A stretch of 32,000 nt of DNA. Origin: an uncultured Actinomycetota bacterium (GTDB lineage Bacteria > Actinomycetota > Actinomycetes > Mycobacteriales > Mycobacteriaceae). Where the stretch lies: NCBI GenBank assembly GCA_963794785.1, contig CAWCFA010000012.1:609285-641284 (forward strand), read 5' to 3'. The position numbers were made by a program, and so were the translations under genes. The notes beneath the pieces were generated by a model. That model saw nothing but the letters and a program-made list of their open reading frames with translations, searched no databases and was not told the DNA's origin. Positions 4,735 through 31,307 of this stretch are shown piece by piece (positions within the stretch are counted from its first letter, which is position 1; each line of letters opens with the position of its first letter).

Positions 4735-4796
4735 GGCCGCCGTCACCGATCAGCCAGTCGGGACCAGCCCCAGCGACTCGACGAGATCGATCATTT

Positions 4797-6020
4797 TCAT
4801 TCGCCGAACCCACCCGGGCGTCCGGCCCGGGCTGCTGCCTCTACAAGATCGGTTGCGCTGGAAACACTTTGGGCAGCGTTGGTCATCTGCCCGGCCACCT
4901 CGCGGGCACGGTCAACCCGCTCCGGTGTGAGGATGGAGCGTAGGTCGGCCACCAGCGAATCCAGCGTGCTGGCGAAAAAGGACCGCCCTGAGCCGATTTC
5001 CAGTCGTGTCACACCATCTGCCCACATCGGCTGATCGAGCCAGAACCACAGGATCAATGTCGGGATTCCAGCCCGCATGCCTGCGGCGGTCGCGCCGGCG
5101 CCCCCGTGGTGGACCGCGGCGCGGCAGGCGGGCAGGATGGCCGCGTGGTTGACCTCGGCCGCCACCTTCACATGTTCGGAAGGCGGGACATCGGTGAAAT
5201 CATTCGGGCCGCTGCAAATCAATGCGCGCACGCCCAACTTCGCACAGGCCGCGCTGATCACGGCCACAGTCTCAGCGGGAGAATTGATCGGCGTGCTTCC
5301 GAAGCCGAAGTAGATAGGCGGCGTTCCCTCAGAGATCCACGACAACACCTCGTCGTCGGCATCGGTCGGTAACTCGAGCGTCAGCGCGCCAACGAAAGGC
5401 CCGCAACAGTTTGCTGGCCCGTCTGGCCCGTCCGATTCCACCCATTCTGCGGCGGGACCGGGCAAACAAAGCTCGTCGTAGGCCTGGATTTCCAGCGTTG
5501 TCCAGGGGCGGCCGGTGGCGCCGGGCAAACCTAGCGCATCGCGTTGCGCGTGATCCGTATCCTTCGCGACGCTCAGAGCCAGCTTCCCGTCCGTCCAGAT
5601 CCGCGAGGGGAAGGGGTGCAACGCAACCAGCGGGATGTCGTAATACTCGGCAACGTTGGCCGCCACCCCCTGCTCATTGAAGCCAACCACTAACAGGTCG
5701 GCCCCACTCGCCAATTCGGTCAGCGTTGCGCTCTTCTCCGCCTTGACCTTGTTCACGCGCTCAACAACGTCCGTTAACAAGCCGGCCGGATTCCGCATCT
5801 TCGCCTGCATATCGAGGATCACATCCGTGGCCGAGTTCATCTGCTCACGCGTGTCCGGGCCGTAGGCGACGGCTGAAAGCCCAGCCGCCTCAACGAAGGC
5901 AAGCATGTTGGGCGGCGCCGCCATGCTCACGTCGTGACCGCGACGGACGAGCTCCCGACCGACGACGGCGCAGGGCTCGAGATCGCCGCGACTTCCGTAC
6001 CCGACCACCACAACTTTCAT
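4797..6020 (-). CDS. GT1-family (MGT/UDP-glycosyltransferase-like) glycosyltransferase, paralogue 2
   Basis: 407 aa. Contains MKVVVVGYGSRGDLEPCAVVGRELVRRGHDV and C-terminal VHHGGAGATAAGMRAGIPTLILWFWLDQPMWA, the GT1 nucleotide-sugar motif. It resembles mycobacterial Rv1524/Rv1526c and Gtf-type enzymes. Its ATG overlaps the upstream gene's stop (ATGA at 6018-6022). Confidence 0.85.
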   Translation of the reverse strand: MKVVVVGYGSRGDLEPCAVVGRELVRRGHDVSMAAPPNMLAFVEAAGLSAVAYGPDTREQMNSATDVILDMQAKMRNPAGLLTDVVERVNKVKAEKSATLTELASGADLLVVGFNEQGVAANVAEYYDIPLVALHPFPSRIWTDGKLALSVAKDTDHAQRDALGLPGATGRPWTTLEIQAYDELCLPGPAAEWVESDGPDGPANCCGPFVGALTLELPTDADDEVLSWISEGTPPIYFGFGSTPINSPAETVAVISAACAKLGVRALICSGPNDFTDVPPSEHVKVAAEVNHAAILPACRAAVHHGGAGATAAGMRAGIPTLILWFWLDQPMWADGVTRLEIGSGRSFFASTLDSLVADLRSILTPERVDRAREVAGQMTNAAQSVSSATDLVEAAARAGRPGGFGE

Positions 6021-7231
6021 CAGCCAACCCCATTCGCAAAAGTGTTGCCCCTCAAGCGGGCCGCCTCTTCCAAGAGATCAGCACAGCGCGCAACGCTCTC
6101 GGCGGGCGGGGTCATCCGAGCCGCTATCTCGCGGGCCCGAGTGACATACTCGGGGGCGAGGATGAGGCGCAGGTCCGCGACCAGAGAGTCCAGGGTACTG
6201 GCCGAAAATGCGCGCCCAAAACCGACTTTCAGTTCGGTAGCGGCAGCCCCCCAGATCGGCTGGTCGTCGACCCGGTGCCAGAGGATCAATGTCGGGACGG
6301 CGGCCCGCATGGCCGCGGCCGTGGTGCCGCAGCCGCCATGGTGGACAACCGCGCGGCAGGCGGGAAAGACGGCCGAGTGGTTCACCGCGCGAGCGACCCT
6401 CACGTTGTCGAAATGCGGGACGTGGCTGAAGTCATTCGGGCCGCTGCATATCAAACCCCGCTCGCCCAGCTGCGCGCAGGCCGCGCTGATCACAGCCACC
6501 GTCTCCGCGGGAGATGGGATCGGCATGCTGCCAAAGCCGAAGTAGACGGGCGGCGCCCCCGCGGCAATCCACGACAAGACCTCGTCGTCGGCATCGCCCG
6601 GCAATTCCAGCGTCAGCGCGCCGACGAAGGGCCTGAAACGTGGCACCACGGCGTGCTGCGACCATTTGGCCGCCAGTCCGGGAAAACACACCTCGTCATA
6701 AGCCTGGATCTCCAGCGTGGGTTGCGTCGACGGTCCGGTGCGCTGCGGTAGGCCCAGCGCTCGACGTTGGTCGTCTTGAGCCTCCTGCGCGACGTGCCCA
6801 ATCAAGCCGCCCAGGGGCGAATCGCCTTCCGGGAAGTACTGCAGCGTGGCCAACGGAATGCCGTAGTGCTCGGCGACGTTGGCGGCCAGCCCGTGCTCGA
6901 CTTTGCCCGTCACTAGCAGGTGCGCGCCGTCTGCCAACGCCGTCAGCGCCGTGCCCCACTCCGCCCAGGCCCGGGTGACATGCCCCACGACTTCGGCCAC
7001 CAGGTCCGTCGGATTCTTGATCGCGTTGCTGGGTGCGAAGTCCTCACCGCCCAGCTGCGGCGGCGCCGACCCGAAGGCGACGGCGGTGAGGCCCGCCGAC
7101 TCCACGAAACCAAACATGTTGGGCGGGAAAGCCATGCGCACGTCGTGACCCCGGCGCAGCAGCTCCCGACCCATGGCAGCCAACGGCTCGACATCGCCGC
7201 GGCTGCCGTAGCCCGCCAGCGCAACTTTCAT
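6020..7231 (-). CDS. GT1-family glycosyltransferase, paralogue 1
   Basis: 403 aa and collinear with the downstream paralogue: MKVALAGYGSRGDVEPLAAMGRELLRRGHDV ... VHHGGCGTTAAAMRAAVPTLILW. Confidence 0.85.
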   Translation of the reverse strand: MKVALAGYGSRGDVEPLAAMGRELLRRGHDVRMAFPPNMFGFVESAGLTAVAFGSAPPQLGGEDFAPSNAIKNPTDLVAEVVGHVTRAWAEWGTALTALADGAHLLVTGKVEHGLAANVAEHYGIPLATLQYFPEGDSPLGGLIGHVAQEAQDDQRRALGLPQRTGPSTQPTLEIQAYDEVCFPGLAAKWSQHAVVPRFRPFVGALTLELPGDADDEVLSWIAAGAPPVYFGFGSMPIPSPAETVAVISAACAQLGERGLICSGPNDFSHVPHFDNVRVARAVNHSAVFPACRAVVHHGGCGTTAAAMRAAVPTLILWHRVDDQPIWGAAATELKVGFGRAFSASTLDSLVADLRLILAPEYVTRAREIAARMTPPAESVARCADLLEEAARLRGNTFANGVG

Positions 7232-7918: not shown

Positions 7919-8572
7919 TTACTGGAACTTGGAACCGAGCCCGGCGATCAGATTGATCGTGACGGCCAGGACAACCGCGCCGAGAAGGTACGACAGCATC
8001 GCGTGGCGCAGCACCGTCGCCCTGATGGACCTCAATCCGATCTCGGTGTCCGACACCTGATAGGTCATCCCGACGGTGTAGGCGACATACGCGAAGTCCC
8101 GAAAACAGGGCGGCTCCGGGTCGTGGAAGTTGATCCCACCCGGTTGATCCGAGTAGTAGAGCCGCGCGTAGTGCACCGTGTACAGCGTGTGCACGGCGAA
8201 CCAGGACGCCCCGACGCTCAGGATGCCCAGAATGGCGGATCGCAAGGACTCAGGACCCGAGCCCGATCCGGCGACCACCACGTAACCGACCCCGCCCAGG
8301 CTCGCGATGCTCGCCGAGACGATCACCACGTCGGCGACCCAACGGGTGGGGTCCTCTCGGGTCGCATATCTGCACGTTTGCTCGGCGTCCATCCCGCCCA
8401 GGATGAGGCGCGTCCACCCCACATTCACGCCAGCGCCGACAACCCAGCCGGCCAGCGCGTATCGCCAGCCAACCGTGTTGCCCACGACGAGAGCCACGGC
8501 AATCCCGAGCACGGTGGCTACCACAATTCGAGCCGCAACAGTGTCGCGAAACAACTCCGCTAGGGGTTTCAC
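7919..8572 (-). CDS. DUF1345-family integral membrane protein
   Basis: 217 aa with several hydrophobic helices. [19 protein letters not shown] resembles the DUF1345 signature as I remember it. GTG start. Confidence 0.6.
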
Positions 8573-9450: not shown

Positions 9451-10798
9451 GTGTCATTTCTGGTCGTGGCTCCCGAATGGGTGGAGTCGGCCACAGCGGA
9501 TCTAGCAAACATCCGTTCGGCACTGGATACCGCGCATCTCGCGGCTGCCGCTCCGACCACCGGGATTGCGGCTGCCGGCGCTGACGAGGTATCGGCGGCG
9601 GTGGCAGCTCTATTCGGCGGCTTCGGTCAGGAATTTCAGGCGCTCAGCGCACAGGCCAGCAGGTTTCACGCCCAGTTTGTGCAGGCACTGAGTACCGCGG
9701 GCGGCTCGTATCTGGCCGCAGAGGCGGCGAACGCGTCGCCATTGCAGACCATCGAGCAGAGCCTCTTGGGCGCCATCAGTACGCCTGCCGCGGCGGCCGG
9801 CTCGCCGTTGCAATCCATCGAGCAGTTCGTCATCGGCGTCATCAACGAGCCCACCATGATCCTGTTCGGGCGTCAGCTGATCAGCACCGGGACGGTGTCC
9901 CTCGGCGGCACGATTACCGGCACTGGGTCAGCAGCGACAGGAAAAACTCCGATCTCGATGTACGCGGGCACCGAGGCGCGGGTGAACGCCTCGGTTGGCA
10001 GCGGTACCCCGGTGCGCCTGCTGGTCGACACCGGATCCACGGGTCTTGTTATCCCGTACCAAAACGTCGGCGGGCTATTCGGAGTACTCCAGCTCGGCTT
10101 ACCCCTCAATATTGGTCTTGGCGGCTACAGCGGGGGAATCGACTATCTTTACGCCACGTATAACGCGCCGGTGAATTTCGGGGGCGGACTCGTCACCTCG
10201 TCCACCCCCGTGAACGTTGAGTTTTTCGCATTCCCGACATCCATCGGGTCCGCGATCAACAACGGCTTCACGTTCCAGTCGTATTTCGCGACCGACGGGG
10301 TAACTGGCGTTCTGGGCGTTGGGCCAAATGCGGGAGGCCCGGGCCCAAGCATTCCGACCCAGGCCTTGGCGTCCCCCTTCAATAAGGGCCTGCTGATCAA
10401 CGAAACCGGGGCTTCGCCCTATCTGCAGTTCAGTGGCACGCCAGCAGCAACAGAAGTGGGCAACCCCATCGCCACGCTTACCGGCGCGCCGATCACCAAC
10501 CTGAACGTGACTGTCACCACAGCGGCGGGACCCAGACTAGCTATACCGACGTTTCCTCGATGCTGGATTCCGGTGGCGTCCAGGGGACCATCCCGTTCAA
10601 CGCGCCGACGGGATCCAGGTTATTGTCACGACCCCAGCAACGGTAACGTCGCTGCTGTACTCGTACATCATGGGCCAGACGTATTCCCCAGCGGTATCAG
10701 CCGGTGTGATGAATACCGGGGCGCTGCTTTTCCACGATCACCCGGTGTATATCAGTTATAGCCCCGGCGGTGTGGGGACGACGATCATCTACCAGTAA
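9451..10798 (+). pseudogene. PE-family protein with C-terminal PecA-type aspartic protease domain, interrupted by two -1 frame changes (or two base-call errors)
   Basis: The N-terminus MSFLVVAPEW...ADEVSAAVAALFGGFGQEFQALSAQASRFHAQFVQAL is a PE domain. The first catalytic motif is LLVDTGSTGLVIP. After ~10525 the sensible reading moves to frame 3 (TQTSYTDVSSMLDSGGVQGTIPFNAP, the second D[ST]G motif). After ~10605 it moves to frame 2 (GIQVIVTTPATVTSLLYSYIMGQTYSP...PVYISYSPGGVGTTIIYQ*), with the stop at 10796-10798. The track ORF tail after 10530 (PRLAIPTFPRCWIPVASRG...) looks out of frame. Confidence 0.75.
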
Positions 10799-16471: not shown

Positions 16472-16792
16472 GTGAGGACATTCGTTCGCCATCTTGTCGC
16501 CGTCGTCATGATGGTGTTGGCCTCAATGGGAGCCGTAACGATCGCGACACCGGCGGTGAGCATGGCCGACTGCGCGGGCGGCGAGTGGTGGGACCCGACG
16601 GGCAAGGTCTGCCGGCCGCTCAACGTCGGCCCACAGCCGCTGGCATGTCAGCCGGGCCAGTGGTGGGACCCGACGGCTAACGTATGCCGGCCACTCGGTG
16701 TCGGGCCGCAACCGCTGGCATGCGACAACGGCTGGTGGTGGGACCCGGCCGCCAACGTATGCCGTCCACCACTGGTGCCCCCGGCCGGCTGA
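16472..16792 (+). CDS. Small secreted Cys/Trp-rich protein made of three tandem ~25-aa repeats (C-x4-WWDP-x4-CRP)
   Basis: AAGGAGG lies 6 nt upstream of the GTG. The signal peptide MRTFVRHLVAVVMMVLASMGAVTIATPAVSMA is followed by CAGGEWWDPTGKVCRPLNVGPQPLA / CQPGQWWDPTANVCRPLGVGPQPLA / CDNGWWWDPAANVCRPPLVPPAG. Confidence 0.7.
   Translation: MRTFVRHLVAVVMMVLASMGAVTIATPAVSMADCAGGEWWDPTGKVCRPLNVGPQPLACQPGQWWDPTANVCRPLGVGPQPLACDNGWWWDPAANVCRPPLVPPAG
16571..16789 (+). repeat. In-frame 75-nt tandem repeat, 3 copies (third shortened), encoding the WWDP/CRP units
   Basis: Repeat units are 16571-16645, 16646-16720 and 16721-16789, read directly. Confidence 0.85.
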
Positions 16793-16824: not shown

Positions 16825-17403
16825 CTAACCCGGCCAGCGCCGGAATAGCTCCCCGGACGCCCACGCCGGCCACGTCGGCGCGCCACTGATCGTGCCCGCA
16901 GTCAGTTGCGCGACAATTCGGGGCCCGTCGAGGCGTGAATTGTCGTAGATCGTTGCGGTGTCGGCGATGTCGATCGCATCAGCAACGAATTGCCATAATC
17001 GGCGGTGCCGTTCGCGGATCTTGACCTCGGGAACGTCGTGGCCACCGTGGAGGACGCGCCGCTGCACGCGCTCGACGGCCAGACCCTCGGGGATCAGCAT
17101 CGCGTGCAGAGCGATGACGTAGCCCACGTCGTGGGCAGAGCGGATCAAGTCCAGCTTTGACGGATGGGAGAAGACGGTCTCGGCGATGAACGACATGCCA
17201 GCCTCGATCAGCCTGGCACGGGTATCTGCTGCGATCCGCGCTGCATCGTAGGCATGCGCGGTTGGATCATCGGGCCAACGCTGCCTTGCGATCTCGTCGG
17301 CGTTGACGAATACGCTGCGCGGCAGTAGCGGCGCCAGCGTGAACGCGATGAATGTCGACTTACCAGCACCGTTCGGGCCGACGACGAGGTCGAGCCGCTT
17401 CAC
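16825..17403 (-). CDS. Zeta-toxin-like P-loop kinase (AAA/zeta toxin family), putative TA toxin
   Basis: 192 aa with Walker A VVGPNGAGKSTF near the N-terminus. Size and layout resemble mycobacterial Rv0366c-type non-canonical PezT/zeta proteins. A small upstream partner gene is present. Confidence 0.7.
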   Translation of the reverse strand: MKRLDLVVGPNGAGKSTFIAFTLAPLLPRSVFVNADEIARQRWPDDPTAHAYDAARIAADTRARLIEAGMSFIAETVFSHPSKLDLIRSAHDVGYVIALHAMLIPEGLAVERVQRRVLHGGHDVPEVKIRERHRRLWQFVADAIDIADTATIYDNSRLDGPRIVAQLTAGTISGAPTWPAWASGELFRRWPG

Positions 17404-17425: not shown

Positions 17426-17815
17426 TCATCCATCGACGTCGACCACCGAGGTCGTGCCGTCGGGCCGGTACTCGACGATCTCGCCGTCCTCGTTGAGCGC
17501 CACCGTCGTGATGCCACGCGCTGCCAGCGCGTCACCGTAATGGGCCGCGGCCAGGGACTCCTCGATAGCGGCCGAGATCTCCGCATTGAAGACGAGCCCC
17601 TCATCCTCGGACAGCTGGTTCGTGTCCAGATTGCCGGCCAGCGCGGCCTCGACACGGCGGCGCGACGCCGTCTGATGGCTCGACACCGCCCGGCCCACCC
17701 GGGCCCAATGATCGAGTTGCTGCTTGGCCGATCGGCTCTGGCGGGCACCCTCGGCGGCGGCGCTGTCTACCAGGTCAGCGGCGACCCTGGTGACGCGGTC
17801 GGCGACGTTCGTCAT
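17426..17815 (-). CDS. Putative cognate antitoxin of the zeta-like toxin (Rv0367c-like / ParD-like N-terminal region)
   Basis: 129 aa. It lies 22 nt upstream of the toxin on the same strand. AKQQLDHWARVGRAV resembles antitoxin-like helical proteins. Confidence 0.55.
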   Translation of the reverse strand: MTNVADRVTRVAADLVDSAAAEGARQSRSAKQQLDHWARVGRAVSSHQTASRRRVEAALAGNLDTNQLSEDEGLVFNAEISAAIEESLAAAHYGDALAARGITTVALNEDGEIVEYRPDGTTSVVDVDG

Positions 17816-17968: not shown

Positions 17969-18217
17969 ATGACAGACGTCGGGATGCGAGAACTGCGACA
18001 GAATCCCGCCCCCGTTTTGCGTGAGGTTGAGGGGGGCGCCGAGGTGACGGTGGTGGTCAATGGCCGCGCCGTAGCCCGGATCGTGCCACTGGAGACGCCA
18101 GCCTGGGTGGCTGGGGATCTGGCCGGGCGGATTTACGGCACGGCCGTGGACCCCGGGTGGGAAGGCGAACTGCGGGCCGCACGCGAGGAAGACATCGTTG
18201 GCGACCCCTGGGAGTAG
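17969..18217 (+). CDS. vapB: VapB (Phd/YefM-fold) antitoxin
   Basis: MTDVGMRELRQNPAPVLREVEGGAEVTVVVNGRAVARIVP. The track ORF starts at 17939 inside the palindrome. The ATG at 17969 or 17984 is more plausible. Confidence 0.8.
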   Translation: MTDVGMRELRQNPAPVLREVEGGAEVTVVVNGRAVARIVPLETPAWVAGDLAGRIYGTAVDPGWEGELRAAREEDIVGDPWE

Positions 18218-18593
18218 ACGAGCCATCCTCGACACCAGCGTGCTGGTAGCGTCCGATGCCGACCTGTCGGGGCTGGTCTGCCAGATCAGCTCGGTGAGCT
18301 ATGCCGAGCTTCATTTCGGTGTTCAGGCCGCACAGGATGACAGCGCCCGGCTAAGTCGTCAGCACCGGTTGACACTGATCCAGTCCATCTACGGTCACGG
18401 CATCGCCTTCACTGACGACACCGCCCACCACTACGGCCTGCTGTGCGGACGCCTGCGAGCCCAAGGCCGCAGTCCGGGCGGTCGTGCCATGGATGTCATG
18501 ATTGCTGCCACCGCTTTGACCCTCGGAGTTCCCCTGGTCACCAGGAACACCGACGACGTCGACCGGCTCGGCATCGAACTATTGCAGCGTTGA
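18198..18593 (+). CDS. vapC: VapC PIN-domain ribonuclease toxin
   Basis: RAILDTSVLV (first acidic residue), ...AELHFGV..., DVMIAATALTLGVPLVTRNTDDV. The start is a TTG that overlaps the vapB end. Confidence 0.85.
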   Translation: MATPGSRRAILDTSVLVASDADLSGLVCQISSVSYAELHFGVQAAQDDSARLSRQHRLTLIQSIYGHGIAFTDDTAHHYGLLCGRLRAQGRSPGGRAMDVMIAATALTLGVPLVTRNTDDVDRLGIELLQR

Positions 18594-22244: not shown

Positions 22245-22829
22245 ATGAGAACTTCGGCATTGTTGCCGATCCTGCGGTCGCAGCTGCAGGGTGGGCTTCT
22301 TGCGCAGTTGTATCTGCACCCGGATGCCGAATACAGCCTCACCGAGGTGGCCAAGTACCTCGGGGCGAGCGTCACCGCGGTGCACCACGAGGTTGAGCGC
22401 TTGGTTGCCGCCGGACTCGTCGACGAGCGGCGGTACGGCAATATGCGACTGATCAGGGCCGCGCAAAGCCGGCTGGCGCGGCCGTTGACCGAGCTGCTCG
22501 CCTTGACTTACGGGCCAATTGCGGTGCTCCCAGACGAACTCGCCGCAGTCCCAGGGATCCGCCAGGCGTACCTATTTGGTTCCTGGGCGCGGCGCTACGG
22601 CGGTGAGCCGGGACCGCCGCCTGGCGACGTCGACGTCCTCGTCGTTGGAAGCACGGACCTCGACGACCTGGATGAGGCGGCCCGTCGCGTGGAGAAGATC
22701 CTGCAGCTTCCCGTGCACATCGTCCGGATCCTGCCTGAGCGGTGGGACAGCCAGGCACACGATGACGCGTTCCTCGCCGATGTGCGCAGCAAACCGCGCG
22801 TGCTTATTGCATTGCGGGACAACGAATGA
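22245..22829 (+). CDS. Winged-helix DNA-binding + minimal nucleotidyltransferase (MNT) domain protein, first gene of an MNT/HEPN-type two-gene module
   Basis: N-terminal wHTH-like SLTEVAKYLGASVTAVHHEVERLVAAGLVDERRYGN. NTase motif LFGSWARRYGG...GDVDVLVVG. ATGA overlap with the next ORF. Confidence 0.75.
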   Translation: MRTSALLPILRSQLQGGLLAQLYLHPDAEYSLTEVAKYLGASVTAVHHEVERLVAAGLVDERRYGNMRLIRAAQSRLARPLTELLALTYGPIAVLPDELAAVPGIRQAYLFGSWARRYGGEPGPPPGDVDVLVVGSTDLDDLDEAARRVEKILQLPVHIVRILPERWDSQAHDDAFLADVRSKPRVLIALRDNE

Positions 22830-23053
22830 GGTGGAATCAGGGACGCGAGAGGGTCGACTCATTGATCGCCGATACCGAAATCGAACTGGTGCACCCGGAT
22901 CGGACCGCTGCCGATCGGCTGCTCAATGAAGCCCGCGCGCACCTGAAATCGGCGGCGCAGATCGCAGACTCCGATGCGGCTGGTGCGTACACGTTGGTGT
23001 ATGACGCCGCGCGGAAGGCGTTGGCAGCGAACGGCGACGTTTACTTGACATAA
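22826..23053 (+). pseudogene. HEPN-like partner of the MNT gene, apparently 3'-truncated (75 aa; relatives as I remember them are ~130 aa)
   Basis: MRWNQGRERVDSLIADTEIELVHPDRTAADRLLNEARAHLKSAAQIADSDAAGAYTLVYDAARKALAA, then NGDVYLT*. The expected C-terminal R-x4-6-H/RN..EY region is missing. The ORF ends 25 nt before repeat unit A. Confidence 0.5.
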
Positions 23054-23077
23054 TGTCGCTTATCGGCACAAATCTAA

Positions 23078-23325
23078 TGCGAGTTGCATTAGATGCAAGG
23101 ACTCGCACCTCTGAGCGACGGCGACGTTGGCGCAGCTGACAAGCTTGGTCACCCCCTGTTCCATCCACCGGCGCCATGCCGTTCATTGACCGTCGCCGCA
23201 GTTTGAATGATTGTTGTTAGGCGACGAGGCGCTGATGCTGGTTTGCTCAGGCCCGACTGCCAAGTCCGCGGCAGCCTATACTCCGTCCGTCTGCAGCCTC
23301 CAAAAACGTCACAGTGACGAATTGT
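23078..23325 (+). repeat. Repeat unit A (~248 bp): 5' hairpin TGCGAGTTGCAT-TAG-ATGCAAGGACTCGCA, diverged interior, 3' palindrome-containing block CGTCACAGTGACGAATTGT
   Basis: The hairpin (23078-23107) has a 12-bp stem with a 3-nt bulge. The 19-mer at 23307-23325 is identical to 24762-24780. The interior aligns loosely with unit C and with the first ~65 codons of the MNT gene (e.g. GCGCAGCTGACAAGCTTGGTC vs TCGCAGCTGCAGGGTGGGCTTCTT). Confidence 0.8.
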
Positions 23326-23696
23326 TATGCCCCGCTGGGTCATTGACCGCTCCTGCGCATTCAGGAACGCGCACCGCTGCTATTCATCCGTTTCGCGACC
23401 ATCGTCGCCCAACCAGGCCTGAGCATCGCAGCCAGCACGGATGAACAGAGGCGCCTGCTTGCGGGGGCGGAATCCTACGTCAGGGCGGTGACCAAGGGAA
23501 CTTTTGGCGTCTACTGCTCCACCTGACCGATTCGGACAGTCCCGTCACCGCAACCCGCGGCTGGCGCGGATGAACCGCACGTATGGTCGACGTTTACTGG
23601 CTCTTGCCTGCGATCTGGACTGGGCGGGCTACGGCCTGGATGCACGACACCAATAAGATGATTGCCTCCGTCAGCCCGCCTCGCCGCGGGCGCAGT

Positions 23697-23745
23697 AACT
23701 CGCACCTCTCAAGCGCGCACCGATACCAGTAAACTAATGCGAGTT
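23697..23745 (+). repeat. 33-nt repeat copy B (AACTCGCACCTCTCAAGCGCGCACCGATACCAG) plus downstream complementary TGCGAGTT
   Basis: 30/33 identical to copy D. AACTCGCA (23697-23704) is the exact reverse complement of TGCGAGTT (23738-23745). Confidence 0.85.
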
Positions 23746-23777
23746 ATACTGCTTTACAATGCATTTCGTTACACCAT

Positions 23778-23806
23778 CAGCTGTTCGGCCTTTCGGGCCC
23801 AGGCTG
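23778..23806 (-). terminator. Imperfect GC-rich hairpin immediately downstream of the relE stop (no U-tract)
   Basis: CAGCTGTTCGGCCTTTCGGGCCCAGGCTG has outer CAGC/GCTG and inner GGCC/GGCC pairing. This is structural inference only. Confidence 0.3.
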
Positions 23807-23809
23807 CGG

Positions 23810-24073
23810 TCAACGCCTGTAAACGTCCGCGCGATGATCGAAACGCTGAATCAACACCAGTGAGTGATCCTCATCGATCCGGTACAACAGGCGGTACGGG
23901 CCGCGCCGGGCGCTATACAGCCCGGTCAGTTCACGCCGCAGCGGCTTGCCGACGCGGCGCGGGTCGTGCGCCAGCTCGCCGAACGCGAACTCAATCACGG
24001 CCGAGAGCACCCGCGGTGGCACCTTGTGCAGGTCACGCCGAGCGGTGCCGGTGAACCGAACCGTATAACCCAC
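23810..24073 (-). CDS. relE: RelE/ParE-superfamily mRNA interferase toxin
   Basis: Own start call at GTG 24073 inside track ORF 23810..24316: VGYTVRFTGTARRDLHKVPPRVLSAVIEFAFGELAHDPRRVGKPLRRELTGLYSARRGPYRLLYRIDEDHSLVLIQRFDHRADVYRR. It resembles M. tuberculosis RelE (Rv1246c) as remembered. Confidence 0.85.
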   Translation of the reverse strand: MGYTVRFTGTARRDLHKVPPRVLSAVIEFAFGELAHDPRRVGKPLRRELTGLYSARRGPYRLLYRIDEDHSLVLIQRFDHRADVYRR

Positions 24074-24080
24074 GGCTGCG

Positions 24081-24362
24081 TTAGTCGGCGCGCCGAGGCA
24101 CACCGAACTCGGCGCGAATTTCGTCCTCGCCGTACGTGCGCCCAGCGCCAATGTCGGCGTCGGCCTCGGCGATCGATTCCTTGATCCCGGGCTGGGAAAG
24201 CCAGTACAGCGTCTCCTGTAGCGATTCCCACTCCTCGGCGCCAACGAGCACCGCCGCCGGCGCGCCGTTCTTGGTGATCGTGATCTGATCCTGCGTTTGG
24301 GCGACCGCATCGACATACTCGTTGAGCTTGTCTTTCATCTTCGAAATCGGCATTATCCGCAT
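24081..24362 (-). CDS. relB: RelB-type (Phd/YefM-fold) antitoxin
   Basis: MPISKMKDKLNEYVDAVAQTQDQITITKNGAPAAVLVGAEEWESLQETLYWL...DEIRAEF resembles M. tuberculosis RelB/RelF. The stop lies 7 nt before the relE GTG. Confidence 0.85.
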   Translation of the reverse strand: MRIMPISKMKDKLNEYVDAVAQTQDQITITKNGAPAAVLVGAEEWESLQETLYWLSQPGIKESIAEADADIGAGRTYGEDEIRAEFGVPRRAD

Positions 24363-24373
24363 GTCACCATGTT

Positions 24374-24418
24374 AGGTCTAAATATAAGCCGGCCATAGGT
24401 CGAAATTAAGGCCTATAG
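24374..24418 (-). promoter_or_regulatory. relBE promoter/operator candidate: minus-strand TATATT plus repeated GGCCATAGG / GGCCTATAG elements (ATAGG-N13-CCTAT inverted repeat)
   Basis: Read directly in the AT-rich tract upstream of relB. Confidence 0.45.
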
Positions 24419-24488
24419 TCCTCGCGCCACTGGCCCCGAGCCATCTCGCGACGATGTGGAAACCCGGCCGCATCCGCTCCCCTGCACC

Positions 24489-24559
24489 AACTCGCACCTG
24501 TCGAGCACGCGCAGTTACCAGTTACCGCTTGCGAGTTGCATCTAGTGAAAGTGCTCGCA
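24489..24559 (+). repeat. 33-nt repeat copy C (AACTCGCACCTGTCGAGCACGCGCAGTTACCAG), then TGCGAGTTGCAT...CTCGCA hairpin (start of unit C)
   Basis: 29/33 identical to copy D. The half-sites are AACTCGCA 24489-24496, TGCGAGTT 24530-24537 and CTCGCA 24554-24559. Confidence 0.85.
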
Positions 24560-24780
24560 CCACATGATGACTGATCGATCGACGCTGCTCAGCGCGTCGT
24601 TTGGCGGTCCAGACGCCCCGGCCGAGTGGCGCATCTGTTGCCAGTACGCCGAGGTCGTCGTAGCGTTGGCAATCCCGTCGCCGGCCGCTGGCAGCGCGAC
24701 GGCGACGATGTGTTCGACCGTTGCCGCCCCTACGTCCCTCCGGCCCAGTCCGCCAATGATTCGTCACAGTGACGAATTGT
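24530..24780 (+). repeat. Repeat unit C (~251 bp): hairpin, decayed wHTH-gene head (MMTDRSTLLSASFGG...), 3' perfect palindrome TCGTCACAGTGACGA + ATTGT
   Basis: The distance from hairpin to palindrome is 232 nt, against 229 nt in unit A. ATGATGACTGATCGATCGACGCTGCTC can be compared with the MNT start ATGAGAACTTCGGCATTGTTG (S-T-L-L vs S-A-L-L with synonymous Leu codon changes). Confidence 0.8.
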
Positions 24781-24948
24781 ATTATGGCACTTAGCGATCC
24801 GCGTTTGGGTATCCTGGTCGAAACCCTGGGCTATAGCCCCCAGAGGCTGGAAGCTCACGCCCGAGCATCCGCATCCACCTACGCGCGATACGTCGCAACT
24901 CGACTTGAGTGAGGGGGTGGCTGGTTAACCAGTCGCTGGCTGGCTACG

Positions 24949-27315
24949 TCACTCGCTTTGACCCCAGAGGCGTCGCTTCTCGCCGATGACGGACCCCTGT
25001 ACCCACCAGACGACCTCGATGAGCGCAGCCGCCATCACGCCGATCAGCAGCGCCGTCGTGGTCTGCGGGACGTTGGACGGGTCGAGCACGAGTTGGTCGC
25101 GGACCAGCGGGATCGAGAAGATCGCCACGTACGCGATCGCGGAGCTCACCACCAGTCCGATGCGCCACCACTCGTACGGTCGGGCCACGACGGCGAGCAC
25201 CCACAGCGCGCCGACCAGCAACGTGATCAACGCGGACGTGGAGGCTTGAGTCTGCTGGATGATCGTCGAGGCGCGGCCCTCGTAGGCGAGCAGATACGAC
25301 GTGAACGCGGCCAGGCCAACGACCAGTCCGCTCGGCAGCGCCGAGGTCATCACACGGCGGACGAAGCCGGAATGGGCGCGTTCCCGGTTGGGTGCCAGCG
25401 ATAGGACGAACGCTGGGATGCCAATCGTGAACCAGGCGGCAATCGTGACGTGGATGGGCTGGAAAGGGAATGGGAGTGGATCGGTACCGAAAAGCTTGGC
25501 CGCCAGGCCCGCTAGGCCGACCAGCACCGCGAGCAGTACCGAGTACACCGTCTTGGTGAGGAAGAGGTTCGAGACCCGTTCGATGTTGCCGATCACCCGC
25601 CTGCCCTCGTCCACGACGTAGGGCAGCGTCGCGAACCTGTTGTCCAACAATACGATCTGCGCGACCGCGCGGGATGCCGAGCTGCCCGACCCCATGGCGA
25701 CCCCGATGTCGGCGTCCTTGAGGGCCAGCACGTCGTTGACTCCATCGCCCGTCATCGCCACGGTGTGACCTCGGGACTGCAGCGCAAGCACCATCGCCCG
25801 CTTCTGGTCGGGACGCACCCGGCCGAACGTCGTGTACTTTTCGAGCGTGTCCGCCAGGTGCTCGGGCTCGTCGGGCAGTTGGCGCGCATCGATGGTCTCG
25901 CCGTGCAGGCCGAGGGTGGCCGCCACCGCGCCGACCGAGAGAGCGTTGTCGCCCGACATCACCTTCACCGTCACGTTCTGGGCGGCGAAGTAGTCGAGCG
26001 TCTCCCTGGCGTCGGGACGGACGCGCTGCTCGAGGACGACGAGCGCCACCGGTGTGACGGTGCCTGGCGCTCCTGGGGCGTCCACGGACTCGTCGGAGGA
26101 GCCCAGCAGCAGGACGCGCATTCCCTGCGCGCCAATCCGCTCGGCCTCCTCGGCGTCCGACGACGTGGGGTCGAGCAGTACGTCTGGTGCGCCGATCACC
26201 CAGTTTCCGTTGTCGCCGTATGACATTCCGCTCCACTTGGTCGCCGACTTGAACGGCGCGCTCGCGGTCGACGTCCATCCGGGTGGCTCCCCGTACGCCT
26301 CGCGGATGGCGCGCATGCTGGCGTTCGGGCGGTCGTCGTCGGCGGCGAGGGAGGCCAGGGCGTTCGCGGCGTCGGCGTCGGTCAGCGCCTTGAGCTCGCT
26401 GAGCCGCATGCCGTTCTCGGTCAGTGTCCCGGTCTTGTCGGCGCACACCACGTCGACCCTGGCGAGCCCTTCGATGGCGGCTAGGTCCTGTACCAGGCAC
26501 TGACGCTTGCCGAGGCGGACCACCCCGACGGCGAACGCGAGCGACGTCATCAGCACCAGGCCCTCGGGCACCATCGGCACCAGTGCGCCGACCATGCGCA
26601 GCACCGACTCCCGCCACCCGACGTCGGTGGTGAACAGCTGCGTATAGATGGTGAGCAGGCCTGCGGGGATCAGGAGATAGGTGATGACCCGCAGAATGGT
26701 GTTGATGCCGTTGCGCAGTTCGGACTTCGCTAGCGTGAACTTGCTCGCCTCTGCGGCGAGTTGGGCGGCGTAGGCCTCGCGGCCCACCCTGGTCGCGCGG
26801 TAGGCCCCGCTGCCCGCGACGACGAAGCTGCCCGACCTCACCTCGTCACCCGCGTCCTTGGCCATCGGGTCGGCCTCGCCGGTGAGGAGTGACTCGTCGA
26901 CCTCGAGGTTGTTCCCCTCGACGACGTCGCCGTCGACGACGATCTGGTCACCGGGCCCCAGCTCGATGACGTCGCCGAGCACGACCTCGCTGGGTGGCCG
27001 CGCCCCGGTCCCGGACTGTCTGCGCACCACGGGTTTCGCTTGCCCCACGATGGCGAGCTTGTCCAGCGTTTGCTTGGCGCGCAGTTCTTGGATGATGCCG
27101 ATCGCACTGTTGGCGACGATGAGAATGCCGAAGAGCCCGTTGATGATCGATCCGGTGGAGAGCACGATGACCAGGAGGATGCCGAGTATTGCGTTGATTC
27201 TGGTGAAGACATTGGCGCGAACGATGTCCTCCACGCTGCGCGCGGCACTGCTGGGCACGTCATTGGTCTTGCCCTCGGCGATGCGTTGCGCGACGTCGGC
27301 GTCGGACAGGCCCAT
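24949..27315 (-). CDS. ctpE: P2-type cation-transporting P-type ATPase, CtpE-like (calcium transporter family in mycobacteria)
   Basis: I prefer the ATG at 27315 ([21 protein letters not shown]...), giving 788 aa. Contains [60 protein letters not shown]. It closely resembles remembered M. tuberculosis CtpE (Rv0908). The track ORF's 60-aa N-terminal extension overlaps the USP gene. Confidence 0.85.
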
Positions 27316-27403
27316 CGCGGCCGCGTACGTCACCGACTTAGCGCTACAGCGCCTCGTCGACCGATGCACAGGCCATCGCCGGCGAGTTTGGTGGCCGTGC
27401 GGC

Positions 27404-28288
27404 TCACGACGGACGGGCGATGACGACGGGGGTCCGCGCTGACTGCAGCACCGCCGAACTGACCGAGCCAAGCAACATTCCGGTGAACCCACCAAAGCCG
27501 TGACTACCCACGACGACGAGTTGGGCGCGCTTGGACTCCTCGACTAGGTGTGCGGCCGCCTGATCGAAGACCACCACCCGGCGCACGGTGACGTCGGGGT
27601 AACGCTCCTGCCAACCGGCAAGCCGCTCGGCAAGCACTTCGGCCCCACCGGCCTCCAGGGCGGCGCGATCCGAGACGATGAATTCGTCACCGTTCCAGTC
27701 CATGCAGGCGAGAAGGGCAACGACGTGAACGCCTCTACGGGATGCCTCATCGAACGCGATGGCGATGGCCAGTTCTGATACCGGCGAACCGTCGATGCCA
27801 ACCACTACAGGCGCGAACGTGCCCGCGGACATTTGCGGATCTTGGTCGTCGACGACCACGATCGGACCGTGCGCATGGTGACTGACACCGGACCCGACCG
27901 ACCCGAGCAGGTGCCGGAGGCGTCCGCGCCCGTGACGTCCGACGACGACCTTGCGGGCCTCGCGCGACAGATCGGCCAGAGTCTCGATCGGGTTGCCGGC
28001 GATCATCGTGCGCTCGATGGTGACCTCGTGCGGACTTGCGGCCTTCTCGGCGATGGCGGCGGCCTCGTCGAGCAGGATGCGACCGGCGGATTCCTGCCAG
28101 TGCTGAAAACCGGCGGGCAGCGGTACTTTCGGCAGCATCACCGTTACCGGTGGCATCAGGACGTGGACCAATGTCAGCGGTTCGTCGTGCAGCACCGCGT
28201 CCCTGGCCGCCCAGTCGACGGCCGCATTCGACGACGACGAACCGTCGACGCCGACCACCAATCCGCGGCGCCCGGTGGCTTCTGCCAT
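27404..28288 (-). CDS. Universal stress protein with tandem USP domains
   Basis: I prefer the ATG at 28288 ([28 protein letters not shown]...) with GAGGGG upstream. The second domain is [15 protein letters not shown]...[19 protein letters not shown] (ATP-binding G-x2-G-x9-G-S). Confidence 0.85.
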
Positions 28289-28482
28289 GAGATACCCCTC
28301 AGTGAATGGCCCACGCGGAAACACCTTCCGTGCAGGGTGTGTGATTGACGGTAGGGCCTGGGCGCGGGCCGATCGCGGGCCATTGGTCACTTATCGGAAG
28401 GTCTTGCGACATCGATTCCGTGCTATTTCATGACGCGACGGGTTAGCGGCCGGCTGCCAGTTGCATCAAGCCGATGGCGTCG

Positions 28483-30870
28483 TCAACGCGGTGTCGTGCC
28501 CGGCAGCGCGCTCGGCCTGCCGTGATTGTCCGCGGCCTCGGGCAGGTCGGTATCGGCGAGGGTGAAGTAGCCCTCCTCTTCCTGCAGGAAGTGCAGATGC
28601 AGCAACGCGTACAGACCGTAGAGGCAGGCCCGCAGATCGTCGACCTGGCCCGGCTGAATGCCGTAGGCACTCTGCGCCAGTGCCAGGTGGTTGCCGATGC
28701 GGTCGGTCAGTCGGTGGATCTCGGCGTGGGTCCTGCTCATCGTGGCGGTCGCTTCGGCGCTCCCCAGCGGCCTCGCCAACGCCGGGTACAGCTCGGCCTG
28801 TTCGGCGTCCTCGTGCGGCAACAGACGCTCGGTGAGGAAGCTCTGAGCCCGGGACACTGCCTCCATCGCCGATGTGCCGGGCCCGGAGCCAATGCGGTCG
28901 GCGGCATCACGCAGCAGGCTCAGTGCATCGCGTAGGTCGTCGTGTTCCCCGGAGAAGCGACGCAGCATCTCCTCGGTGCGTGCCGACAACTCGATTCCGG
29001 CGGCGGGGTTGCCCCGCAGGGCGCGCAACGCGTTGAGGATCACCGCGACGTCGATGCCCTCCTGCAGCAACGCCCCCGCCGCGGGCGGCAGCAGTCCGAC
29101 CGCAGCAACACCCATGGCCAACAGAGACAACACCATTCCGGCGACCGCGCTTTGCACCGCAATGCGCCGCGACCAGCGTGCGACGTCCATCGCATCGGCG
29201 AGGCGGTCCAGCCGGTCGGTCGTCAACACGATGTCGGCAGCCTCCGAGGACGCCGTCGCCCCGCGGGCACCCATCGCAACGCCGACCGTGGCCGCAGCCA
29301 GAGCGGGAGCGTCGTTGACGCCGTCGCCGACCATCACCGTTACGGCGTGTTCCCGTTCGGCCCGCACGGCAGCCACCTTGTCCGCGGGACTCTGGTCGGT
29401 GTACACCTCGTCAAGGCCCAGCACGGTGGCAACCTCCCGCGCGGGCGCCGCGCGGTCGCCGGTGAGCATGACCAATCGGTTGAATCCGGCGGCGCGCAGT
29501 CGTCGCATCGTGCGGGGGGCGTTGCGGCGCAGCGGATCTCGCAACAACACCGCGCCGATGACCTCATCGTCGACGCTGACCCACGCGATCGCCGCGCTGT
29601 CGAGGCCGGCCCGGTTCACGGCCGCCCCGGCCCATCCCGCCTCGGATGCATCTGCGGCGAGCTTGCCGACTGCGATCCTGCGGCCGTCCACCGAGGCGGT
29701 CACGCCCCGGCCGGGTTGCTCGATCACCTCGGCCGGCATCGACAACGACAGGTTGCGTGCGAGGGCTTCGGTGACGATCGCCGCGGCCAGCACATGGGGT
29801 GACATCTGGTCCACCGACGCGGCCAAGCGCAGGATGTCGGTGCCGTCGCGACCAGGTGCGGCCAGGACGTCCACGACGACGGGATGACCAGCGGTGAGAG
29901 TCCCGGTCTTGTCCATCACCAGCGTCGTCGCGTGCCCGAGGTTCTCCAAGGCGCCGCCGCTGCGAATCACCACCCCCAGTCGGGAGGCCCGGGACAAGCC
30001 GGAGACGATCGCGACCGGCGCGGCGAGCAGCAGCGGGCACGGTGTCGCCACCACCAGCACCGCCACCGCTCGCACCGCCGACCCGCTGGCCAGCCACGCG
30101 GCACCAGCAACGACGAGCGCCACCGGTAGGAACCACGCCGCGTAGCGATCAGCCAGCCGGATGACCGGCGCACTGTCGGCGCCCGCGTCCCGGGCCAACC
30201 GCACGATCCCGGCGTAGGTGCTCTCCTCGGCGCTGGCGGTGGCACGAATCTCGAAGGCGGTCGCGGCGTTGACCACACCGCTGCGCACCGGCTCACCCGC
30301 CGCACGTTCGACTTGCAACGGCTCACCGGTGAGCGCCGACTCATCCAGGACCGCCATCGTGCCTTCGATCCGGCCGTCCACGGGGACCACTTCACCGGGG
30401 CCGACCACCAGCAGGTCACCGGCTACGACCTCGCCCAACGGCACCACCGCTATCGCGTCACCGATCCGGCGCCGCGCGGAATGGGGTGCACGCTCCAGCA
30501 GGGCCCGCAAGTCGTGCGAGGCGCGCCGTTGCGCGGCCGCATCCAGGGCGCGCCCGGTAGCGAGCATCACCGCGATCAGCGCACCGGCCACGTACTCGCC
30601 CACCCACAGCGTCCCCACCAGCGACAACACCGCCAGCACATCCACCCCGGCCCGACCCCGGCGCAGCGCCACCACCACCCACACCACCGCCGGCACCACC
30701 GCGGCCAGCGTTCCCGCCACCCAACACCCTTCGGCCACCGCACGCCACCCGCTAAGCCACGCAATGCCACCCAGCAGCAGCGCGGCAACCGTCACCACCA
30801 CCAAAGCCGGCTCAAGCAGGGACCGAAGCCGCTGCAGCGACGTTCGGGGCGTCGTCGGTGCGGCGGTCAC
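28483..30870 (-). CDS. P1B-5-type heavy-metal P-type ATPase (TPCP transmembrane motif, no N-terminal HMA domain) fused to a C-terminal hemerythrin-like domain
   Basis: Contains VATPCPLLLAAPVAIVSG, DKTGTLT, GDGVNDAPALAAATVGVAMG. The last ~175 aa (approx 28486-29010) carry spaced His/Glu residues: SGEHDDL, LLPHEDAEQAELYP, MSRTHAEIHRL, LLHLHFLQEEEGYF. GTG start. Confidence 0.85.
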   Translation of the reverse strand: MTAAPTTPRTSLQRLRSLLEPALVVVTVAALLLGGIAWLSGWRAVAEGCWVAGTLAAVVPAVVWVVVALRRGRAGVDVLAVLSLVGTLWVGEYVAGALIAVMLATGRALDAAAQRRASHDLRALLERAPHSARRRIGDAIAVVPLGEVVAGDLLVVGPGEVVPVDGRIEGTMAVLDESALTGEPLQVERAAGEPVRSGVVNAATAFEIRATASAEESTYAGIVRLARDAGADSAPVIRLADRYAAWFLPVALVVAGAAWLASGSAVRAVAVLVVATPCPLLLAAPVAIVSGLSRASRLGVVIRSGGALENLGHATTLVMDKTGTLTAGHPVVVDVLAAPGRDGTDILRLAASVDQMSPHVLAAAIVTEALARNLSLSMPAEVIEQPGRGVTASVDGRRIAVGKLAADASEAGWAGAAVNRAGLDSAAIAWVSVDDEVIGAVLLRDPLRRNAPRTMRRLRAAGFNRLVMLTGDRAAPAREVATVLGLDEVYTDQSPADKVAAVRAEREHAVTVMVGDGVNDAPALAAATVGVAMGARGATASSEAADIVLTTDRLDRLADAMDVARWSRRIAVQSAVAGMVLSLLAMGVAAVGLLPPAAGALLQEGIDVAVILNALRALRGNPAAGIELSARTEEMLRRFSGEHDDLRDALSLLRDAADRIGSGPGTSAMEAVSRAQSFLTERLLPHEDAEQAELYPALARPLGSAEATATMSRTHAEIHRLTDRIGNHLALAQSAYGIQPGQVDDLRACLYGLYALLHLHFLQEEEGYFTLADTDLPEAADNHGRPSALPGTTPR

Positions 30871-31204
30871 CGCGCACTCCGGCCGTCGACGCCAGTCCCG
30901 ACGATGTTGTGATCAATTCTGCCCGCCTGCAACGGTGTCGCACCCGGGCCACCACACCGCAACTCTCGAGAACGGCGACTCCCGACACCGACAGTCGCAG
31001 AAGGATTGGAGGTAGCACTGGGCATGTTGGCCCTCTCTGGCACCATTCCATCGAGCGACATCGGCCGAGGGGCGCATTGGCGACGGTATACCGAAGTTCG
31101 AATGAGCGCTGGCGCTGACTTTAGAATCCGCGTACCGGTGGTTCGAGAGTCTTTGGTCATCGACCTCAAGGCCTTACGCCTTCGATTTATGCGCAACCCA
31201 AAGT

Positions 31205-31218
31205 GGTCTCGCGAGACC
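31205..31218. promoter_or_regulatory. Perfect 14-bp palindrome GGTCTCGCGAGACC in the 490-bp region upstream of the P1B-5 ATPase
   Basis: Read directly. Function unknown. Confidence 0.3.
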
Positions 31219-31274
31219 GATCAGATGCAGGCTGTTCAACTCCCCCGCCTGCCGCAAGCTTCAAAGGGCCGGTC

Positions 31275-31307
31275 AACTCGCACCTCTCGAGCACGCACCG
31301 CTACCAG
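31275..31307 (+). repeat. 33-nt repeat copy D (AACTCGCACCTCTCGAGCACGCACCGCTACCAG)
   Basis: Same orientation as copies B and C. It lies between the methyltransferase stop (31364) and the ATPase start (30870). Confidence 0.85.

Follow-up and report, generated by a model that had tools for sequence, protein, structure and literature searches.

Among described integrative elements, the strand-biased circularizing integrative elements (SEs) of Vibrio carry a core of intA, a small gene and intB, and have inverted end motifs and a spacer of about 6 bp (PMC9345347). The integrative mobile elements exploiting Xer (IMEXs), which include CTXphi, VGJphi, TLCphi and the gonococcal genetic island, recombine inside the dimer resolution site dif by means of the host recombinases XerCD and have dif-like flanks. 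Here we analyse a stretch of 32,000 nucleotides of an uncultured actinobacterium of the Mycobacteriaceae (contig CAWCFA010000012.1, positions 609,285 to 641,284; hereafter the window), in which a 33-nt direct repeat follows a dif site. The 33-mers appear to be the conserved right ends of three mobile units that stand head-to-tail immediately outside the XerC arm of dif, a reading to which we assign a probability of roughly 0.78. To judge from sequence comparison, the repeats would be the junction scars of serial site-specific integration.

The 33-mer AACTCGCACCTCTCGAGCACGCACCGCTACCAG has an exact copy at its third occurrence in the window, and the first and second copies, likewise on the plus strand, differ from it by three and four mismatches, respectively (Table 1). 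No match was found in 100 shuffles. The positions and common orientation of the three copies agree with a preliminary description of this DNA. Copies 1 and 2 extend to 54 nt (repeat family D3), with TGCGAGTT following each. A profile hidden Markov model (HMM) built from related copies and run over the whole 32 kb detected no 33-mer beyond the three; its sole extra match is the TGCGAGTT-hairpin part alone, at 23072-23101. An inverted 8-mer reported 33 nt downstream of the repeat is present for the first two copies (TGCGAGTT at 23738 and 24530) and absent for the third. The sequence GACTCGCACCTCT at 23100-23112, described as a partial copy in a hairpin, does exist, but it belongs to the left-end hairpin directly after dif, of which it forms the 3' arm, and is no truncated 33-mer. 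Neither of two proposed look-alikes is a repeat copy: the one at 24897 sits in the last codons (..ATRLE*) of a recombinase gene remnant whose protein is conserved across genera, and the one at 30961 had no match to the HMM. The look-alikes are thus not boundaries, the supposed unit C and the ATPase block form one unit, and the window holds three units in place of the four segments proposed before.

The dif site, overlooked in the preliminary description, is a canonical actinobacterial one and anchors the array. Its minus-strand sequence TGTGCCGATAA-GCGACA-TTATGTCAAGT comprises an 11-nt XerC arm, a 6-nt centre and an 11-nt XerD arm in agreement with the consensus of the phylum. Compared with the dif predicted in Frankia alni, CACGCCGATAATGCACATTATGTCAAGT (Kono et al. 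2011, PMC3025954), the window site TGTGCCGATAAGCGACATTATGTCAAGT is identical at 22 of 28 positions, including all 11 of the XerD arm, and the XerC-arm core GCCGATAA is conserved. There is one copy of dif in the window, where the GC skew shows a weak change of sign near 22-24 kb; the homologous dif of Sinomonas flava lies at about 49% of its chromosome.

The comparative set comprised 24 actinobacterial genomes, 56 metagenome contigs and two plasmids. Genomes were scanned, one per species, with a degenerate 22-nt pattern of 19 specified bases, and since the scan demanded an exact match to all 19, degenerate copies elsewhere might escape it. It returned 27 hits, of which 24 belong to Actinomycetota of the genera Mycobacterium (including M. 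leprae, M. simulans and M. sherrisii), Mycolicibacterium, Williamsia and Micromonospora, with one stretch per genome. The other three hits (two Nitrososphaera and one Pseudomonas) match the pattern only, about four such matches being expected by chance, and no match was found in viral contigs. The copies form same-orientation arrays, with five in one locus (L012) and three in each of four others (L009, L020, L026 and L027), and none of the 85 copies in the 56 metagenome loci is inverted. In the consensus of 121 copies, conservation starts sharply at AAC, stays above 90% through the 33-mer, falls in the variable spacer of about 8 nt, and returns at TGCGAGTT and the small hairpin.

Wherever a dif was present in the fetched stretch (the window, seven genome loci and five metagenome loci), it lies upstream of the repeats in the same orientation. 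The TGCGAGTT-hairpin part stands without a 33-mer 6-8 nt after dif (15 nt in one locus) in the window and in six of the seven genome loci. The exception, L004, has a dif-like site with five mismatches and no left end following it. The most distal copies, conversely, are often a 33-mer without the hairpin part. Such split ends, with the left end alone at dif and the 33-mer alone distally, are the pattern predicted for arrays of tandem complete units. The simplest reading of the aligned sequences would be dif followed by n repetitions of left end, cargo and 33-mer, all on the XerC-arm side and in one orientation. Beyond the last 33-mer and to the left of dif, no conserved chromosomal flank was found past about 30 nt.

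The same distribution bears on the view that the 33-mer and the TGCGAGTT hairpin form a non-autonomous repeat of about 80 nt, akin to a miniature inverted-repeat transposable element (MITE) or a repetitive extragenic palindrome (REP), with ordinary chromosomal genes in between. The element is indeed short, intergenic and multi-copy, and contains an internal inverted repeat; yet it occupies a single stretch in each of the 24 assemblies instead of being dispersed, all copies share one orientation, the two parts separate at the array ends, and cargo travels between species with its own flanking halves, which together render this view extremely improbable. A coding 3' end, hinted at by third-position variation in the frame NSHLSS..YQ, was rejected because about 25 loci show no conservation upstream. 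The 33-mer is therefore neither the end of a gene nor a dispersed REP, the two identities that the preliminary description had set against its own proposal, and none of the results named there as refuting was obtained.

Individual units have a modular character. Between the relBE unit of the window and one found in the array of another species (L009), the identity is 93%, and the units next to them are unrelated. The homology starts with GAGTTA.. inside the left end and terminates with ..GTTACCAGTT, where the 33-mer ends. The left boundary is likewise at ATTGCGAGTT in the MazEF units of L020 (two copies) and L014. Since the boundaries of both relBE and MazEF homology fall in the variable spacer, the exchange point is bracketed to it. 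The cargo of the arrays is diverse and includes Phd/ParE, RHH/PemK, an M20 peptidase, adenylate cyclase, hydrolases, HxlR with a metallo-beta-lactamase, F420H2 reductase, hemerythrin and MarR. Cargo genes are mostly oriented toward dif, an orientation that would be co-directional with a replication fork converging on the site.

Intact units of M. simulans, Gordonia, Sinomonas, M. abscessus, Frondihabitans and plasmids start with genes for a recombinase (IntA, about 375 aa), an HTH_26 protein (about 120 aa) and a second large protein (IntB, about 485 aa), which come right after the left end in seven loci. In M. simulans (L003, 340-7235), the first unit after dif is intact, and its conserved non-coding left end of about 290 nt precedes genes for a 376-aa tyrosine recombinase, a 120-aa HTH_26 protein and IntB, the cargo, a MUG113/T5orf172 gene and the 33-mer. 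The IntA of this unit matches Phage_integrase (6e-20), and its closest relatives of solved structure are XerD, XerC-like, IntI4, XerA and XerH proteins. The IntB family counts at least 352 members at E <= 1e-5, labelled as 'integrase' or 'Fis family transcriptional regulator'. It has a Cys-rich N-terminal extension, and R336, R425, H468 and Y479, the catalytic roles of which were assigned by eye, are invariant in an alignment of 31 sequences. No NCBIfam family scored above its cut-off for IntB, and one family member exceeds the Pfam Phage_integrase threshold (34.1 vs 27.1 bits). For the AlphaFold model of IntB (pLDDT 78, low in the C-terminal part), the top 50 Foldseek matches listed from the PDB are all tyrosine recombinases (TM 0.2-0.4), 46 of them with a probability of at least 0.97. 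IntB is predicted from these comparisons to have the tyrosine-recombinase fold and to be a second, divergent member of that class.

The trio of genes also occurs in M. fortuitum, Gordonia, Sinomonas flava, M. abscessus and Frondihabitans, and in all of these except M. fortuitum, dif and the hairpin lie 150-250 nt upstream of intA. Homologs of IntB are encoded on 252 actinobacterial plasmids (105 from Streptomyces, 57 from Rhodococcus and 26 from Arthrobacter); both plasmids inspected bear a dif-like site and the hairpin, followed by the trio (Table 1). The window itself retains the last 35 codons of intB, contrary to the earlier statement that no recombinase is visible in it. This remnant is matched by the IntB proteins of six genera at E values of 1e-12 to 3e-5, including those of M. 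fortuitum, Gordonia, Sinomonas, M. abscessus and Frondihabitans.

The proximity of dif and the presence of a dedicated recombinase pair are pertinent to the possibility that the units are modules of the IMEX or pdif type, devoid of a recombinase of their own and moved by host XerC and XerD at dif-like sites, the 33-mer being a degenerate half of dif. Every array adjoins a bona fide dif, known IMEXs and the pdif modules of Acinetobacter are likewise stacked and equipped with toxin-antitoxin (TA) genes, and the dif-like site of L004, altered in its centre and XerD arm, may be a hybrid. We nevertheless consider this origin unlikely. The internal junctions do not resemble dif: the end of the 33-mer agrees with either arm at no more than 5-6 of 11 ungapped positions and lacks the ATAA..TTAT core. 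There is one dif per array, so that units are not bounded by dif-like sites on both sides; this dif is intact, and the junction is placed beyond the XerC arm, at a distance of 6-8 nt, and not at the central region. Intact units, finally, encode IntA and IntB.

Unusual junctions were noted in two loci. In L004, the dif-like site (464-491) has an altered centre and XerD arm with no left end after it, and at 1244-1382 the 33-mer stands about 70 nt apart from TACCAG and the TGCGAGTT part; in L005 (4688-4747), the XerD arm AGTTGACATA runs directly into ..TACTGGCAATAACCAATGCGAGTT. Such junctions may be hybrids produced by recombination inside dif. An apparent half-dif in L025 was rejected as a chance match inside a coding region (a TetR-like gene, by eye).

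A complete left end consists of TGCGAGTT, the hairpin and about 260 nt of conserved non-coding DNA, and the right end is AACTCGCACCTGTCGAGCACGCACCGTTACCAG, which over its first 8-10 nt repeats the start of the left end in inverted form. AACTCGCA and TGCGAGTT, the motifs at the two ends, are inverted copies of each other, and an imperfect inverted repeat AAC..../....GTT spans each junction. The left-end hairpin is unusually stable (z = -3.3), and its stem is preserved by covariation across genera: 7 of the 11 pairs have changed on both sides, and none of 500 shuffles reached this score. The end motifs also vary together, AACTCGCACC / TGCGAGTT in Mycobacterium corresponding to AACTCGTCCTA / TAGGACGAGTT in Gordonia, where the left-end arms TAGGACGAGTT / GACTCGTCCTAG and the right end AACTCGTCCTACCTCAACACGACTCGTTACCAG have undergone matching changes.

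Two further explanations are touched by these properties. In a strict integron, the 33-mer together with TGCGAGTT would be an attC site, folded as a single strand and recognised by an IntI-type integrase. The same-orientation arrays, the small cassettes that include TA modules, the AAC/GTT inverted repeat at each junction and the weak similarity of IntA to integron integrases speak for it. Yet the folded junction reaches a z-score of only -0.6 to -1.1, and since this fold is not unusually stable, an attC-like folded substrate is unsupported. Of the attC cores RYYYAAC...GTTRRRY, only AAC and GTT are conserved, the four nucleotides before AAC being variable and the right core reading GTTRYRT. 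IntA scores 62 bits against a cut-off of 265 for the integron integrase family TIGR02249, and 36.5 against 435 for PRK15417. The recombinase genes lie within a unit rather than beside an attI/Pc platform, and many units are multi-gene. A strict integron is thus very improbable.

Equally hard to credit is that the repeat is a cis-regulatory element (an operator, a terminator or a small RNA) of paralogous operons with no role in recombination. The motif AACTCGCACC does occur three times per junction region and co-varies across genera, as a site bound by the HTH_26 protein would, and cargo genes often start or end right at the repeat. A scan of the window against Rfam revealed no known RNA family, however, the cargo is unrelated from unit to unit, and neither the fixed polarity relative to dif nor the split ends would be explained. 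Part of the sequence might have a regulatory role in addition to being the end of a mobile unit, and such a role would not replace that explanation.

From the architecture of the units, their polarity, single locus, modular exchange at the spacer, recombinase content and adjacency to dif in both chromosomes and plasmids, we infer a course of integration that includes the cutting roles of the proteins, the circular intermediate, mobilisation in trans, the chemistry of the crossover and any part played by XerCD or FtsK. The element would circularise, its right end joined to its left end across the variable spacer of about 8 nt. Exchange in the spacer, catalysed by IntA and IntB, would then recombine the circle junction with either the flank of dif or a junction already present. 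Each event would add one unit in a fixed orientation and keep dif intact. The target could be recognised through the XerC arm itself, through dif-bound XerC, or through an extended palindrome around dif. Short integrase-less cassettes, composed of two ends and one or two genes (relBE in the window), would be moved in trans, and later deletions would have stripped the recombinase genes from all three window units. The suggestion of the preliminary description that the repeats reflect serial integration at one att site, or a cassette-type system, gains support from the single locus, the split ends, the modularity of the cassettes and the recombinases of intact units.

Several observations weigh against this course of events. 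Neither an excision product nor an empty site nor a presence/absence polymorphism among strains was seen directly in the material analysed. The crossover is bracketed only to about 8-16 nt between ..ACCAGTT and GAGTT, and the terminus of the right end is not convincingly matched by the sequence just outside dif, the best agreement being 5-6 of 11 positions. The unit nearest dif in the window is the most decayed one, which misfits a simple rule by which the newest unit lies next to dif. In Sinomonas, M. abscessus and Frondihabitans, the approximately 10-13 kb that follow intB yielded no right end. The trio of M. fortuitum (L030) lacks the hairpin part of the left end and has no dif within 7 kb upstream, so the adjacency to dif is not absolute.

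The features of the window and the plasmid sites are collected in Table 1.

Table 1. Positions of the dif site, the three units and associated features in the window, and of dif-like sites on two plasmids
Feature	Position	Strand	Basis or remark
Gene for wHTH and nucleotidyltransferase (MNT-like) protein of an MNT/HEPN-type pair, left of dif	22245..22829	+	Pfam MarR_2/HTH_20, NTP_transf_2/Polbeta
Partner gene, cut off after codon 68 (homology ends 23029)	22826..23053	+	alignment to L001 3613-4074
Remnant AACGGCGACGTTT, 13 nt, of the ~30-nt block conserved left of dif in other species	23030..23042		
dif site	23043..23070	-	22/28 identity to predicted Frankia alni dif, XerD arm 11/11
Unit 1, gene-less remnant of a recombinase-bearing element	23071..23729	+	left-end alignment
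33-mer copy 1, right end of unit 1	23697..23729	+	
Unit 2, relBE-type cassette	23730..24521	+	93% identity to unit at L009 ~4059-4875
ParE/RelE-family toxin, GTG start, 87 aa	23810..24073	-	Pfam ParE_toxin 2.8e-11
Phd/YefM-family antitoxin, 93 aa	24081..24362	-	Pfam PhdYeFM_antitox 2e-22
33-mer copy 2, right end of unit 2	24489..24521	+	
Unit 3, integrase-deleted derivative of a recombinase-bearing element	24522..31307	+	left-end alignment; tblastn
intB remnant, last 35 codons and stop	24805..24912	+	83% aa identity to M. simulans IntB
CtpE-like P-type ATPase, likely start 27315 (open reading frame open to 27495)	24949..27315	-	Pfam E1-E2_ATPase, Hydrolase, Cation_ATPase_C
Tandem-domain universal stress protein, likely start 28288	27404..28288	-	Pfam Usp 3.9e-47, two stretches
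Heavy-metal P1B-type ATPase with C-terminal hemerythrin domain	28483..30870	-	Pfam E1-E2_ATPase, Hydrolase, Hemerythrin
33-mer copy 3, right end of unit 3; last recognisable junction, no TGCGAGTT part after it	31275..31307	+	
dif-like site, plasmid pASPHE302 (L035)	4329-4356		circular plasmid
dif-like site, R. qingshengii plasmid (L036)	4313-4340		circular plasmid

Unit 1 consists of a 7-nt spacer, the left-end hairpin TGCGAGTTGCATTAGATGCAAGGACTCGCACC (23078-23109), an GTCACAGTGAC box (23308-23318) and the first 33-mer, with no protein remnants. Unit 2 opens with the spacer TAAACTAA and a short left end of a second type (TGCGAGTT and a small hairpin, 23738-23773), followed by a minus-strand TA operon and the second 33-mer. 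Unit 3 runs from a spacer through a left end of about 260 nt (24522-24785; hairpin 24530-24561, GTCACAGTGAC box 24763-24773), the intB remnant and the cargo to the third 33-mer. Its gene for the P1B ATPase has 83-85% nucleotide identity to genes on plasmids of Rhodococcus qingshengii and Mycolicibacterium aubagnense, which indicates recent horizontal movement of the hemerythrin-fused gene. As no intact recombinase is left in the window, the array is probably frozen unless a recombinase is supplied in trans.

On the XerD side of dif, the MNT-like gene and its partner have intact homologs on the Mycobacterium plasmid p20KCMC460_01 and on an M. avium plasmid (88% and 76% nucleotide identity, the former measured for the MNT-like gene at 22245-22829). 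The intact plasmid homolog of the partner gene encodes 153 aa, and the missing C-terminal half was not found elsewhere in the window. A single large insertion splitting this gene was considered and rejected, the lost half having been sought beyond the array and not found. The truncation of the gene exactly 13 nt before dif suggests a deletion or an illegitimate event on this side of the site. The only public contig found with an exact match to a protein of the window, a read-assembly contig of 1585 nt (L002, Logan ERR11523675), stops about 17 nt past the truncated gene, at the boundary between dif and the left end, and many metagenome contigs likewise break at the 33-mer; these breaks fit a multi-copy repeat within genomes.

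In mycobacteria, the roughly 30 nt conserved on the left of dif are similar to the left end in inverted orientation, and look like the inverted remnant of a left end on the XerD side. A contig of M. abscessus (L033, FVBG01000002.1, 5133-11509) contains two IntA-HTH-IntB trios facing divergently with dif (8313-8340) between them; because the second trio is mirrored there, the XerD side can also be occupied, by a more divergent family. In M. leprae TN (L015, 29-220), a decayed 33-mer precedes TTAATGAATAATTCGCGTGTTAGGTGAAAGC, in which part of the left end can still be recognised; together they are a vestige of this system in a reduced genome. A link to the M. leprae repeat RLEP, one primer for which contains CACCGATACCAG, was dismissed, as the primers are absent from this locus.

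Other parts of the window contain further genes of note. To the left of dif are TA-like genes, namely a Zeta-toxin/AAA_33 gene (16825-17403), a ParD-like antitoxin gene (17426-17815) and a PIN-domain gene (18198-18593). Two adjacent paralogous glycosyltransferase genes (4797-7231; EryCIII-like/GT28, 407 and 403 aa) form a tandem duplication of about 1.2 kb with about 78% nucleotide identity. A PE-PGRS-type gene lies at 9451-10761, and a small secreted-looking protein with a weak match to the Peritrophin-A chitin-binding domain is encoded at 16472-16792 by three 75-nt tandem repeats (GEWWDPTGKVCRP..).

In a broader sense, the arrays might represent a class of gene-capture platform anchored at dif in Actinobacteria (Mycobacteriales and Micrococcales, on chromosomes and plasmids), a generalisation that we offer tentatively and at somewhat less than even odds. 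In such a platform, a Xer-like IntA and a zinc-ribbon IntB would insert units outside the XerC arm and mobilise integrase-less TA, stress, metal-resistance and metabolic cassettes into integron-like arrays, the landing pad perhaps being dif-bound XerC or an extended palindrome. Dif-adjacent arrays or the motif strings in actinobacteria were not described in the literature searched, the coverage of which was partial, and an earlier report may exist. If the proposal is true, the flank of dif would be a dedicated hotspot for acquired genes in mycobacteria and their relatives, affecting clinically relevant groups such as M. abscessus and the M. avium/intracellulare group, with remnants in M. leprae. 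It would partly explain the clustering of TA and metal-efflux genes in mycobacterial genomes, and would provide actinobacteria with a functional analogue of the integron. It would also constitute a third exploitation of dif, besides dimer resolution and IMEXs, in which a self-encoded recombinase pair lands beside the site. The junction of the 33-mer with TGCGAGTT, together with IntA and IntB, might serve as a tool for site-specific integration in mycobacteria, and the array as a marker for strain typing and for locating the replication terminus.

The units share features with several known systems. Genomic islands, integrative and conjugative elements and integrative mobilizable elements that accumulate at one att site, for example at the 3' ends of tRNA or tmRNA genes, similarly possess a tyrosine recombinase, direct att repeats and integrase-less remnants perhaps mobilised in trans, but here the target is the non-coding flank of dif, there are two recombinases, the repeat is asymmetric (a 33-nt right end and a different left end), and no gene end is duplicated. 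The Tn554 family and the recombinase-in-trio (RIT) elements are, like these units, site- and orientation-specific tyrosine 'transposons' with multiple recombinases. Their descriptions set them apart: RIT elements have three recombinases and long terminal inverted repeats, whereas the middle gene here encodes the 120-aa HTH_26 protein; Tn554 targets att554, and neither is linked to dif. Integrons, including sedentary chromosomal ones with TA cassettes, resemble the present arrays in the accumulation of diverse accessory cargo at one locus in the same orientation, with a conserved site that forms an imperfect inverted repeat, and differ in their IntI, attI and Pc, in the placement of the recombinase outside the cassettes, and in that the units here can be multi-gene. 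Integrons are reported to be essentially absent from actinobacteria. With the IMEXs, the units have in common the use of a dimer resolution site, the fixed orientation, the tandem accumulation and the preservation of a functional dif; the two differ in the place of recombination, inside dif for IMEXs and beside it here.

By architecture, the SEs are the closest analogue. They may correspond to the 'gamma-mobile-trio' families of NCBI; IntA falls outside GmtY/GmtZ, with 21.6 bits against the GmtY cut-off of 340, and no Vibrio plasmids were among the 252 plasmids with IntB homologs. In the SEs, the small gene is not of the HTH_26 kind found here, and SEs neither target dif nor build arrays, whereas the units described here insert at the flank of dif, form tandem arrays and give rise to integrase-less derivatives. 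Common to both are the order of the core at one end of the element, with intA, a small gene and intB for a large tyrosine recombinase with a long N-terminal region, the imperfect inverted motifs at the ends, the spacer (about 6 bp in SEs) carried across the joined ends, the site-selective and orientation-specific insertion, the variable cargo and the lack of Xis.

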